This document shows, piece after piece, positions 35,408 through 36,824 of a stretch of 64,000 nucleotides of DNA. The stretch is taken from assembly GCA_049287185.1 (NCBI GenBank), contig JBAQFI010000004.1, forward strand, positions 8,125 through 72,124, given 5' to 3'. The translations under genes and the position numbers were made by a program. Each line of letters opens with the position of its first letter. The first letter of the stretch is position 1. This DNA comes from Minisyncoccia bacterium (GTDB lineage Bacteria > Patescibacteriota > Minisyncoccia > Phycocordibacterales > GWA1-40-21). The notes beneath the pieces are model-generated. The model was given only the letters and a program-made list of their open reading frames with translations, had not been told where the DNA came from and searched no databases.

Positions 35408-35481
35408 GTCGGCGTAGCTCATCTGGCTAGAGCGTGGGACTCATAAGCCCAAGGTAGATGGTTCAAGTCCATCCGCCGACA
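35408..35481 (+). tRNA. tRNA-Met (CAU) (elongator or Ile2-lysidine type; G1-C72 paired)
   Basis: GUCGGCG acceptor/CGCCGAC, D-arm GCUC-AUCUGGCUA-GAGC, anticodon loop cuCAUaa, T-arm GAUGG-UUCAAGU-CCAUC, discriminator A. Confidence 0.8.
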
Positions 35482-35585
35482 CAATTGCAATGTAAATTTT
35501 CGTGTTTTATTTAAACCTTCCCCTAAGAATTTTTAGTCCTCGAAAGTGGTTAGTATAACTGCCTGTCACGTGATATAATAATTAT

Positions 35586-36260
35586 GTGCCAATCTTTAAA
35601 GATGTTAACAAGGATTTTTTCAAAAAATGGACACCCAATATGTCATATGTTTTGGGTTTTTTCGCAGCTGATGGTTATATTACTTTGAATAAAAGAAATG
35701 CAAATTTCTGGTGTATTCAAATTAAGGACAATAAACTTTTGCAAGAAATAAGAAAAGCAGTTGGCTCAAATCATAAAATTAGCGAGAGGTTTAATAATAA
35801 ATATAAGACTACTTTATATCGTCTTCAGATTGGTAGTAAAGAAATGTGTGATGATTTAAGAAAATTAGGATTTTATGAGGGTAAAACAAAGAACCTATCA
35901 GTACCAAATGTCCCTAGTAAATACTTCAAAGATTTTATTAGGGGATATTTTGATGGTGATGGTAATGTTTGGTCTGGACTTGTACATAAGGAAAGGGCTA
36001 AACCATTATTGACTATACGTTGTGTTTTTACTTCCTGTTCAAAACAGTTCCTTCTCGATATTCATGAACGTTTGTTGTGTTTCGGTGTTTCAGGTGGTGT
36101 TTTGAGTAAGGGTCAAGGTAACTATTATAGACTCACTTATAGCGCAAAAAGTACTTTGATTTTTTATGATTTTGTGTATAATGGTATAGTCAAAGATTCG
36201 AGCGGTTTGCACCTTGAACGAAAAAAAAGAATTTTTGATAAATATAGAATGCAGTTGTAG
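35586..36260 (+). CDS. LAGLIDADG homing endonuclease (double-motif, single-chain)
   Basis: Two LAGLIDADG motifs: LGFFAADGYI and RGYFDGDGNV, about 100 aa apart. The track uses a GTG start at 35586; an in-frame ATG (MSYVLGFF...) at 35640 is an alternative. The stop codon lies inside the tRNA-Asp 5' acceptor stem. Confidence 0.8.
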   Translation: MPIFKDVNKDFFKKWTPNMSYVLGFFAADGYITLNKRNANFWCIQIKDNKLLQEIRKAVGSNHKISERFNNKYKTTLYRLQIGSKEMCDDLRKLGFYEGKTKNLSVPNVPSKYFKDFIRGYFDGDGNVWSGLVHKERAKPLLTIRCVFTSCSKQFLLDIHERLLCFGVSGGVLSKGQGNYYRLTYSAKSTLIFYDFVYNGIVKDSSGLHLERKKRIFDKYRMQL

Positions 36261-36545
36261 CTCAATTGGTTAGAGCACTCGCCTGTAGACGTACGTGCAG
36301 CTTTCCTTCTGAAAGGGGGATTGAAACTCTCTGGGATAACGGTGGAGGCTAAGTTCATCAATTTGGTGAATAAGCGAATACCGTGGGAACCTCAATAATT
36401 TGTTGAGGGCGCCGTAGAGACTAGATACCGGAGTACCTAAATTTGCTTTTAGCAAATATGGTAAAGATATAGTCCACGCCATTATGAAAATATTGGAATT
36501 AGTGCACGCGAGAGGTCGCGGGTTCAAATCCCGTCAACTGCGCCA
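36251..36545 (+). tRNA. tRNA-Asp (GUC) interrupted by a group I intron in the anticodon loop; CCA encoded
   Basis: 5' exon 36251-36286 (GCAGUUG acceptor, D-arm GCUC-AAUUGGUUA-GAGC, CUCGC + cugu). 3' exon 36505-36545 (cac + GCGAG, var AGGUC, T-arm GCGGG-UUCAAAU-CCCGU, CAACUGC, G, CCA). Spliced loop cuGUCac. The arms closely match E. coli tRNA-Asp. Confidence 0.8.
36287..36504 (+). ncRNA. group I self-splicing intron (218 nt, no internal ORF)
   Basis: Exon ...CUGU pairs with IGS gcag (U·G at the 5' splice site, P1). The adjacent cgtg pairs with 3' exon cacg (P10). Conserved R-like gccgtagAGACUAgata and S element AAGAUAUAGUCC are present (P7 strands). The intron ends in G (omega G) at 36504. 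Confidence 0.8.
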
Positions 36546-36583
36546 AAATTAAACCGCCTTGTGCGGTTTTAATTTTGGCGCAG
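36541..36583 (+). terminator. long terminator hairpin incorporating the tRNA-Asp CCA end
   Basis: gcgccaaaattaaaccgc-cttgt-gcggttttaattttggcgc (18-bp stem). Confidence 0.7.
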
Positions 36584-36824
36584 TAAAACCAGTTTGAGAA
36601 AACTGGTTTTGTTCATTTGAAAATGAACTGACGGGATTTGAAAGACGGAACGCACCGAACGAAGTGAGGTCTGAATCTAGCAAGATTCAGAAGTGAGTCG
36701 GGGTCGAGAGTTCTGACGAGTGACGACGAGGAAGAAACTCGTGACCAATCATCCCGTCACTATTATCCTAATTACAAAATATCCAAAGAAGGGACTGACC
36801 CTGTAAGGGTCAAATCCCGTCAAC
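36546..36824 (+). other. structured ~280-bp insert downstream of tRNA-Asp, closed by a direct repeat of the tRNA 3' end
   Basis: gggtcaaatcccgtcaac (36807-36824) matches tRNA-Asp 3' end gggttcaaatcccgtcaac (36519-36537) with one deletion. The interior has multiple hairpins (aaccagtttgag...ctggtt; ctgaatct...attcag; tgacggga...tcccgtca closing a ~115-nt domain). Confidence 0.5.

Follow-up and report, generated by a model that had tools for sequence, protein, structure and literature searches.

What is a homing endonuclease gene doing between two transfer RNA (tRNA) genes, one of which supplies its stop codon and is itself split by an intron that encodes no protein? The question is posed by a 64,000-nucleotide (nt) stretch of the genome of a Minisyncoccia bacterium (assembly GCA_049287185.1, contig JBAQFI010000004.1; hereafter, the window), in which an open reading frame (ORF) for an endonuclease of the LAGLIDADG class occupies positions 35586..36260 of the + strand, immediately upstream of an intron-containing tRNA-Asp(GTC) gene. 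By comparing this locus with its relatives, we found that the endonuclease gene is an insertion of ~750 bp with a fixed home beside tRNA-Asp; most carriers hold it intact and subject to purifying selection, and ~6% hold it in decayed form. We lean toward the view, argued below, that its product would cut intron-less tRNA-Asp genes and that the intron may be mobilized along with it.

The ORF begins with a GTG codon and encodes 224 amino acids (aa), with a Pfam match to LAGLIDADG_3 (PF14528; E 3.4e-15, 56.5 bits against a cut-off of 22.5). The first LAGLIDADG motif, VLGFFAADG, spans residues 22-30, with the D29 codon at 35670-35672, and the second, IRGYFDGDG, spans residues 118-126, with the D125 codon at 35958-35960; in an alignment with 30 homologues, D29, G30, D123, D125, and G126 were all invariant. 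Because the N-terminal extension MPIYKKVNKDFFKKW is also conserved among homologues, we take the GTG start to be real. Sequence searches of the PDB with the endonuclease gave weak matches (E ~1e-4), and we therefore used fold comparison. An AlphaFold2 model with 30 homologues as input (predicted local distance difference test score [pLDDT] 86, predicted template modeling score [pTM] 0.85) has a predicted alpha-beta-beta-alpha-beta-beta-alpha fold that occurs twice, with the element order H-E-E-H-E-E-H in each half. In a Foldseek comparison with the PDB, I-Tsp061I ranked first (E 2.3e-10); after it came I-AniI, E-DreI, the bI3 maturase, the I-OnuI family, and I-DmoI, and the top matches were all LAGLIDADG enzymes. 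On its alignment and predicted fold, the product is a divergent single-chain double-LAGLIDADG endonuclease with both catalytic Asp residues present; that it is a single-chain homing endonuclease had been concluded from the two motifs by a first interpretation of the window (the sequence-only reading). Its annotation as a LAGLIDADG endonuclease is already in NCBI and hence not new. LAGLIDADG enzymes make site-specific double-strand cuts in targets of 14-40 bp and leave 4-nt 3' overhangs.

The gene lies outside any intron or intein and has its own start codon, so that the earlier description of it as free-standing holds. On its left, across a gap of 103 nt, is tRNA-Met(CAT) (35408..35482, + strand; ARAGORN and Rfam), and on its right is tRNA-Asp(GTC) (36251..36545, + strand), which ARAGORN in intron mode resolves into a 5' exon (36251..36286; nt 1-36, ending ...CCTGT), a 218-nt intron between anticodon positions 35 and 36, and a 3' exon (36505..36545; CACGCGAG...GCGCCA) whose limits also follow from comparison with the intron-less relative described below. 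The joined exons form a 77-mer with a canonical tRNA-Asp fold. The split tRNA and its intron are missed by default ARAGORN and by Rfam at the gathering threshold and were found with the ARAGORN intron mode and the Rfam E-value mode; with these programs, we recovered the placement between tRNA-Met and an intron-containing tRNA-Asp given by the sequence-only reading. The final 10 nt of the ORF are exactly nt 1-10 of tRNA-Asp, as had been claimed, but the stop codon is not inside the 5' acceptor stem: the TAG at 36258-36260 is tRNA U8-A9-G10, just 3' of the stem, and it is the preceding codons, (AT)G-CAG-TTG, that coincide with acceptor nt 1-7. From this stop codon to the start of the intron is 26 nt. 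A terminator scan of the window locus found no terminator between the endonuclease gene and tRNA-Asp; an intrinsic-terminator-like hairpin at 36551..36569 (+ strand) ends the tRNA-Asp transcription unit.

This arrangement is not peculiar to the window. In public data clustered at 90% identity, the endonuclease has more than 3,300 relatives, of which the best are ~60% identical and all those with names come from Patescibacteria; an index of contigs had no exact match to the window protein. The C termini of these relatives either stop at ...KMRL, KMRS, or KMRP or continue into ...VAAVAQR, the translated 5' end of the tRNA. We surveyed 80 loci (each designated L plus a number), one per GTDB species, with endonuclease identities of 43-71%, and could read the downstream DNA in 78. 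In all 78, tRNA-Asp(GTC) directly follows the endonuclease gene, and no relative examined sits at a locus unlinked to tRNA-Asp. The stop codon falls at tRNA nt 8-10 in 47 loci, at another TAG or TAA within the 5' exon in 18, and beyond the 5' exon in 1; in the other 12, it lies 5-298 nt upstream of the tRNA. Since 66 of the 78 loci, all from other species, also end the ORF within tRNA-Asp, the overlap is far above chance. Upstream, a + strand tRNA-Met(CAT) precedes the endonuclease gene in nearly all 80 loci, mostly by 35-400 nt and by 0.5-1.3 kb in ~8, and the conserved order is gatA, the gene for a 207-aa protein (p207), tRNA-Met, the endonuclease gene where present, and tRNA-Asp. None of the best 80 homologues on viral contigs (26-41% identity) adjoins a tRNA gene; they provide no outgroup context for the tRNA link, and because they never adjoin a tRNA, that link defines this clade of endonucleases. 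The window endonuclease belongs to a large Patescibacteria-specific (Paceibacteria/Parcubacteria) clade whose fixed home is the spacer between tRNA-Met and tRNA-Asp.

At a few loci, the junction itself has a more complicated structure. In L032 (1466-1560), L124 (~560-636), and L035/L036, the end of the endonuclease gene is formed by a decayed second copy of the tRNA-Asp 5' end (e.g., GCGGTCGTAAG...), and the functional tRNA-Asp begins 60-100 nt past it. These duplicates suggest that the boundary between endonuclease gene and tRNA has been rearranged repeatedly.

To sample relatives regardless of whether they carry the endonuclease gene, we used the neighboring 207-aa protein as bait. The closest relative with DNA sequence, L201, encodes an 81%-identical version of this protein in the same gene order and has tRNA-Met, a 199-nt spacer, and an intron-less tRNA-Asp, with no endonuclease gene. 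The ORF and the intron are thus both missing from an allele whose tRNA-Asp exons are 100% identical to those of the window. In a BLASTN comparison, homology extends across tRNA-Met, ends at window position 35499/35500, and returns at 36249, 2 nt before tRNA-Asp +1, and L201 holds 180 nt of unrelated sequence in place of the 749-bp endonuclease cassette (35500..36248, + strand; an 86-nt leader plus the ORF). The absence of the intron is likewise precise (window 36286|36505 corresponds to L201 2137|2138). Further syntenic empty alleles were found in L195, L197, L198, L200, L203, and L298. Other copies have decayed: L033, L066, and L071 contain one in-frame stop each, L055 is frameshifted, L050 has lost its N terminus, and L124 has several frameshifts. 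Thus, at one precise site among relatives, intact, decayed, and empty states all occur.

Among endonuclease relatives, the ratio of nonsynonymous to synonymous divergence (dN/dS) was 0.07-0.17, with dS saturated. Endonuclease identity barely tracked the identity of gatA (Spearman 0.06), and the neighbor-joining (NJ) tree of the endonuclease was poorly resolved, with deep divergences. The discordance runs in both directions: L069 and L054 are 0.71 identical in gatA and 0.45 in the endonuclease, and L010 and L023 are 0.48 identical in gatA and 0.64 in the endonuclease. (The exon distances of tRNA-Met and tRNA-Asp were dropped as host markers in favor of gatA, as they were not even correlated with each other.) Taken together, the empty alleles, the decay, the selection, and the gatA discordance fit a homing element better than a host gene.

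What such an element might recognize is suggested by the leader of the cassette. At 35548..35570 (+ strand) lies GGTTAGTATAACTGCCTGTCACG, which repeats the stretch of intron-less tRNA-Asp that extends from the D-loop to the anticodon loop. The motif has the form GGTTAG-N8-CCTGTCACG, corresponds to tRNA-Asp nt ~17-39 with the same 8-nt spacing, and in the window ends exactly 15 nt before the start codon. With up to two mismatches, it is present upstream of the start in ~50 of the 80 loci, mostly in the 15-nt register; with at most one mismatch, it is found in 30 of the 80 leaders, 25 of them in that register, and in a distant subgroup the same motif is shifted up against the ATG. In the 64-kb window, the motif occurs only once when two mismatches are allowed (0 expected), and in 890 kb of related loci it is confined to endonuclease leaders and intron-less tRNA-Asp genes. 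As L201 is without it, the motif belongs to the cassette. The alternative that the motif is a native tRNA promoter was rejected, given the same lack of it in L201 and only a faint resemblance in the empty allele L198.

The leader consensus, aatTGGTTAGtatAAT.tCCTGTCACGtGgTATAAT, aligns with tRNA-Asp nt ~14-46 (AACTGGTTAGAGCACYCGCCTGTCACGCGRGAGG) and keeps both loop segments and their spacing, with the stem segments replaced by TATAAT-like boxes. Because the stems are destroyed, folding into a tRNA-like RNA is not what is conserved, and a protein that reads the DNA sequence explains the conservation better. The motif core, CCTGT|CACG, contains the site at which the intron is inserted. From these features, we infer that the enzyme recognizes intron-less tRNA-Asp over ~23 bp, from the D-loop to the anticodon loop, and that the leader copy is either a target mimic serving as an operator for autoregulation or a fossil of the original target. 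Flanks of endonuclease genes that resemble the target of the enzyme have a precedent in the work of Loizos et al., described in PMC3984707. The boxes themselves may form a putative promoter for a leaderless or near-leaderless messenger RNA (mRNA): TGATATAAT, which reads as an extended -10-like box at 35571..35579 (+ strand), lies 6 nt upstream of the GTG, TATAAT is conserved at that position in the consensus, and a second box, TATAAC, lies at 35554-35559 inside the motif.

So conserved a gene and leader could also be explained if the LAGLIDADG protein had been domesticated, either as a DNA-binding regulator of the tRNA-Met/tRNA-Asp operon acting at the leader motif or as a maturase for group I introns in tRNA or ribosomal RNA (rRNA) genes. 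The fixed locus with its deep synteny, the strong purifying selection with dS saturated even between the closest pairs, and the binding-site-like character of the leader motif would all suit a host function, as would the presence of the bifunctional/maturase proteins I-AniI and bI3 among the PDB neighbors. A needed host function is nevertheless unlikely because the gene is absent from L201 and six other syntenic loci and is a pseudogene in ~6% of carriers; furthermore, both catalytic Asp residues are invariant, and endonuclease identity does not follow gatA. A maturase would be expected to accompany an intron, whereas 41 of the 78 endonuclease-linked tRNA-Asp genes have none, and an intron of the same class, in a tRNA-Asp gene of Microgenomatia and thus from a lineage different from that of the window intron, self-splices in vitro without protein (PMC13011429). 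We regard domestication as improbable.

The intron of the window (36287..36504, + strand) is a group I intron that contains no ORF, matched by Rfam Intron_gpI (RF00028) over 36298..36496 with 43.5 bits (E 2.2e-9), which falls short of the gathering score (50). Its assignment also draws on an alignment of 34 introns, in which 33 of 50 predicted pairs show compensatory changes, a U.G pair marks the 5' splice site, and the last intron base is G. In agreement with the sequence-only reading, no + strand ORF of 40 aa or more is present within the window intron, which is too short to hold an endonuclease gene. Introns were found in 37 of the 78 endonuclease-linked tRNA-Asp genes; because the other 41 carriers have none, the link between the endonuclease gene and tRNA-Asp is independent of the intron. 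None of the 34 complete introns, which are 194-260 nt long, contains an ORF or a remnant of one. In L042, L049, L056, and L057, a second, unrelated type of group I intron occupies the same 35/36 site (core ...GGCAATCAGCAGCCAAGCC...GAAGGTTCAGAGACTAT..., as against GCGCCGTAGAGACTAGATACC in the common type), and this type may resemble the IC3 introns of cyanobacterial tRNA-Leu. Two unrelated intron types thus share the 35/36 site beside the same endonuclease family.

Other tRNA genes in these loci carry introns as well. ORF-less group I introns occur in flanking tRNA genes, at position 33/34 of tRNA-Met and 36/37 of tRNA-Thr(GGT), in L005, L007, L017, L018, L021, L024, L028, L043, L047, L075, and L076; both sites are listed in PMC13011429. 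In L017, L018, and L028, the tRNA-Met that has the intron and the tRNA-Met that comes next lie ~0.8 kb apart.

The sequence-only reading had entertained the possibility that the endonuclease was ejected from the intron, in which case its gene would once have resided in the tRNA-Asp intron and later moved out into the spacer upstream. The leader motif does have its core, CCTGT|CACG, centered on the intron site, as expected of the target of an intron-encoded enzyme, and movement of endonuclease genes between free-standing and intron-borne states has been proposed (PMC3984707). However, no homologue was found within any intron, the 34 complete introns are free of ORF remnants, roughly half of the carriers are intron-less, two unrelated intron types stand beside the same endonuclease family, the boundary of the cassette is at the 5' end of the tRNA, and the best 80 viral homologues are not near tRNA genes. 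We consider expulsion from the intron very improbable.

Does the intron nevertheless go with the endonuclease gene? We assembled 12 loci that had been sampled regardless of the endonuclease gene, by the flank protein or by a tRNA-Asp 5'-exon pattern. Three had both the endonuclease gene and the intron (L294/295, L112, and L124, the last with a pseudogene), two had the endonuclease gene and no intron (L292/293 and L296), none had the intron without the endonuclease gene, and seven had neither (one-sided Fisher p = 0.045, n = 12 loci). Thus, in the loci sampled, the intron was seen only beside the endonuclease gene or its pseudogene. The pattern scan of metagenomes returned mostly high-GC (guanine-plus-cytosine) tRNA-Asp genes of other phyla and left ~8 usable Patescibacteria-like loci; because the 5'-exon pattern itself selects a canonical D-arm, the empty alleles found in this way cannot be used to judge the canonical status of endonuclease-free genomes.

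A further expectation follows from the proposed target. If carriers have to avoid cutting their own chromosome, few endonuclease genes should have an unbroken canonical site next to them, and few did. Of the endonuclease-linked tRNA-Asp genes, 27 of the 38 with an intron had the canonical site, as against only 4 of the 41 without one (Fisher p = 1.5e-8). Among the variants of the intron-less genes, 9 have a 1-nt insertion (GGTTAGTAGC), 7 have a short D-loop, and 21 have an otherwise remodeled D-arm or D-loop; the D-stems of these 21 include GTGT/ACAC, GTTT/AAAC, and GCTT/AAGC, and 11 of the 21 are off by one of the 15 specified motif bases. The extra variability of the intron-less class is concentrated in the D-arm and the variable loop, whereas the two classes are equally variable in the acceptor, anticodon, and T arms. 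On the endonuclease tree, alleles with the intron are intermingled with alleles that lack it, and in sister pairs on the NJ tree that are discordant for the intron, the canonical site was on the intron side in 9 of 9 informative cases (p = 0.002).

The tRNA-Asp genes of these loci show a further peculiarity. In 13 species (L002, L004, L009, L015, L017, L018, L021, L024, L030, L033, L034, L040, and L078), a non-canonical T-arm (GGGGTCAGCACCC, no TTC) occurs together with a short D-loop, and ARAGORN fails on tRNA-Asp genes with this T-arm when an intron is present.

These observations lead us to favor, with somewhat better than even confidence, a free-standing homing endonuclease that targets intron-less tRNA-Asp, with carriers protected by the intron or by D-arm variants and the intron mobilized in trans. 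The endonuclease would cut canonical intron-less tRNA-Asp in endonuclease-free chromosomes, and repair of the cut would copy the cassette from the carrier. Carriers could be protected in two ways: a group I intron at 35/36 would split the right half-site, and changes to the D-arm (an altered D-stem or a 1-nt insertion) would spoil the left half-site or the spacing. As only 36 bp of exon lie between them, the intron would be co-converted with the endonuclease gene, and an ORF-less intron would thereby be mobilized in trans, in what has been called "collaborative homing." Mobilization in trans by a free-standing enzyme had also been raised by the sequence-only reading; it fits the linkage of intron and endonuclease gene and the leader motif that spans the intron site, and it is not proven by them.

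Expression of the enzyme may be held in check at the same locus. The leader copy, with its stems replaced by TATAAT-like boxes, could be an uncleavable autoregulatory operator, or else a fossil of the first target. At the other end, tRNA-Asp supplies the last two to three codons of the endonuclease gene and its stop. If the endonuclease gene and tRNA-Asp are co-transcribed, then, since no terminator lies between the ORF and the tRNA, cleavage by ribonuclease P (RNase P) at tRNA +1 would strip the mRNA of its stop codon and limit the output of the enzyme. By eye, no internal tRNA-Asp promoter with proper spacing was seen in the 3' end of the endonuclease gene. In its widest form, the proposal becomes an arms race at a tRNA gene, in which the enzyme cuts canonical tRNA-Asp, carriers escape either through an intron (recruited at least twice, from unrelated types) or through D-arm remodeling, and the enzyme is restrained by an uncleavable copy of its target in its own promoter and by removal of its stop codon by RNase P. 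We advance this wider scenario only tentatively and think it rather doubtful as a whole; were it true, the intron would be an immunity device, and the unusual D-arm diversity of Patescibacteria tRNA-Asp would be driven by a selfish nuclease.

The same data can be read without any immunity. The endonuclease and the intron might be independent tenants of the locus, the enzyme homing to the junction of the spacer and the tRNA-Asp 5' end, or to the 5' region of the tRNA, and the intron arriving by a route of its own, such as reverse splicing; their association would then come from hitchhiking by co-conversion or from common lineages. The right boundary of the cassette at tRNA +1 accords with this, as LAGLIDADG genes are usually inserted near the cut, and so do the absence of the intron from half of the carriers, its scattered presence over the endonuclease tree, the introns with the same core in phage tRNA genes that have no such endonuclease gene, and the ORF-less introns in other tRNA genes of the same loci (Met 33/34 and Thr 36/37). 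However, empty alleles show no sequence conservation upstream of tRNA-Asp, which would make that region a poor half-site. Independence also leaves unexplained why the leader carries a copy of tRNA nt 17-39 across the intron site, why a canonical D-arm beside the endonuclease gene is nearly confined to intron-split genes, and why no endonuclease-free intron-containing allele was seen. We judge independent tenancy to be unlikely, if still a serious competitor.

Several observations weigh against a target at the intron-less tRNA-Asp with protection by the intron or the D-arm. Four intron-less, endonuclease-linked loci (L041, L063, L070, and L076) keep the canonical site, L063 together with a perfect leader motif, and nine intron-containing alleles have a short D-loop (CGGTAG) in place of GGTTAG. 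The association of canonical site and intron is confounded by shared ancestry, the NJ tree beneath the sister-pair comparison has very short internal branches, and the unbiased two-by-two table comprises 12 loci only and leaves out two published intron-containing tRNA-Asp genes of Microgenomatia. Phage tRNA-Ile(TAT) and tRNA-Gln(TTG) genes (IMG/VR; L206-L209) likewise have introns, 210 nt long, with the common core GCGCCGTAGAGACTAGATACC, and no homologue of the endonuclease was found near them. We caught no recent transfer: the closest endonuclease pairs are at most 79% identical, with saturated dS, no near-identical copies were found in distant hosts, and a long vertical residence of the gene is possible. 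Finally, a simple sigma-70 scan did not call the leader a promoter, and no -35 box was recognized.

The tRNA cluster also houses elements of other kinds. About 130-180 nt long, one such element follows the tRNA-Asp terminator in the window (36585-36765); it starts with an inverted copy of the tRNA-Asp 3' end (CTGACGGGATTTGAA, the reverse complement of the T-loop, T-stem, and acceptor) and ends with a direct partial copy of it (ATCCCGTCAC). Its predicted fold is closed and multi-armed (-48.8 kcal/mol, z -3.5), and it has no Rfam family, the only match being a weak one to IS605-orfB-II (E 1.2). Related elements occur at 2210-2352 and 1920-2055 in L201 and downstream of tRNA-Asp in L195, L197, L200, L103, L004, and L030. 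Their tRNA 3'-end copies track the tRNA sequence of each locus, and the one that follows tRNA-Met in L201 ends with a copy of the tRNA-Met 3' end. These elements are found in a minority of loci, both with and without the endonuclease gene, and could be miniature tRNA-targeting mobile elements or an unknown small RNA. In addition, GIY-YIG ORFs (87-89 aa; Pfam PF01541) lie between two tRNA-Met genes in L203 (4915-5184) and L292 (4750-5013), one of which has no LAGLIDADG gene, and in L203 an island with a serine recombinase abuts the tRNA-Asp 3' end. Endonuclease-like genes seem to have a hotspot in this tRNA cluster.

In 2026, Nakagawa et al. (PMC13011429) described group I introns at 35/36 of tRNA-Asp and tRNA-Asn from Patescibacteria; they sought endonuclease genes inside introns only, found that most tRNA introns have none, and concluded that transfer is probably infrequent; their paper makes no mention of a free-standing LAGLIDADG gene upstream of tRNA-Asp. 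The window intron lies at the same site of the same tRNA-Asp(GTC) and shares its sequence type with the Paceibacteria entry GCA_023898525.1; it differs from that account in having the free-standing gene directly upstream. The intron class is therefore already published, but in the literature searched we found no description of the conserved endonuclease-tRNA-Asp arrangement or of how it is linked to the intron, and both seem to be new. Patescibacteria keep many group I introns despite their tiny genomes, and the missing intron-encoded endonucleases have been taken as a sign of limited mobility (PMC13011429). A free-standing endonuclease gene 36 bp from the intron, in hundreds of species, would offer ORF-less introns a possible route by which to move and persist and, if our interpretation is right, would bring collaborative homing, so far described in a few phages, into cellular chromosomes and tRNA genes. 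The system would also provide a small (224-aa) monomeric LAGLIDADG enzyme with a predicted 23-bp target, predicted resistant natural alleles, and a predicted operator, in which a stop codon supplied by a tRNA ties the synthesis of a selfish protein to tRNA processing.

The nearest parallels are the cases of collaborative homing in phages, namely F-CphI with the ORF-less psbA intron of cyanophage S-PM2, an HNH enzyme with the DNA polymerase intron of T3/T7-like phages, and mobE with the defunct I-TevIII intron (PMC3984707, PMC6083498, PMC2790892). As in those phages, a free-standing endonuclease gene adjoins a gene that is interrupted by a self-splicing group I intron with no ORF of its own, the site of that intron overlaps the proposed target, and the intron would protect its carrier and be copied along. 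Unlike them, the window system resides in a bacterial chromosome, has a tRNA as its host gene, and uses a LAGLIDADG rather than an HNH or Endo VII-like enzyme; its ORF overlaps the gene that is the presumed target, a copy of the target stands in the leader, and about half of the carriers are intron-less with variant tRNA D-arms. Phage T4 offers another free-standing homing endonuclease gene among tRNA genes: in 2008, Brok-Volchanskaya et al. reportedly found that SegB, a GIY-YIG endonuclease encoded in the T4 tRNA cluster, promotes inheritance of the tRNA region. SegB differs in its enzyme family, its phage setting, and the lack of both an intron and an overlap with a tRNA.

By fold, the window protein is close to I-Tsp061I, its best structural match, and to I-DmoI and I-ShaI, enzymes of archaeal and candidate phyla radiation (CPR) rRNA introns; CPR genomes are rich in LAGLIDADG genes. 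Those enzymes are encoded in rRNA introns or insertion sequences, whereas the window protein is free-standing, two-domain, and tRNA-linked; I-ShaI of CPR is a single-domain homodimeric LAGLIDADG protein (PMC11270868). The role that we propose for the leader motif, a target-like sequence over the gene's own promoter with its central part altered, would by analogy resemble the operator of I-TevI. According to a report attributed to Edgell et al. in 2004, I-TevI is said to repress itself through an operator that resembles its homing site yet cannot be cut. I-TevI belongs to another enzyme family, and the window motif may just as well be what is left of the original target as a fossil. Finally, free-standing LAGLIDADG ORFs of fungal mitochondria abut or are fused to the ends of host genes, and the window gene likewise is lodged right at one end of a conserved host gene, with which it has nucleotides in common. 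Whereas the mitochondrial ORFs are fused to the 3' ends of protein genes, it is the 3' end of the window ORF that overlaps the 5' end of a tRNA, which gives it its stop codon.

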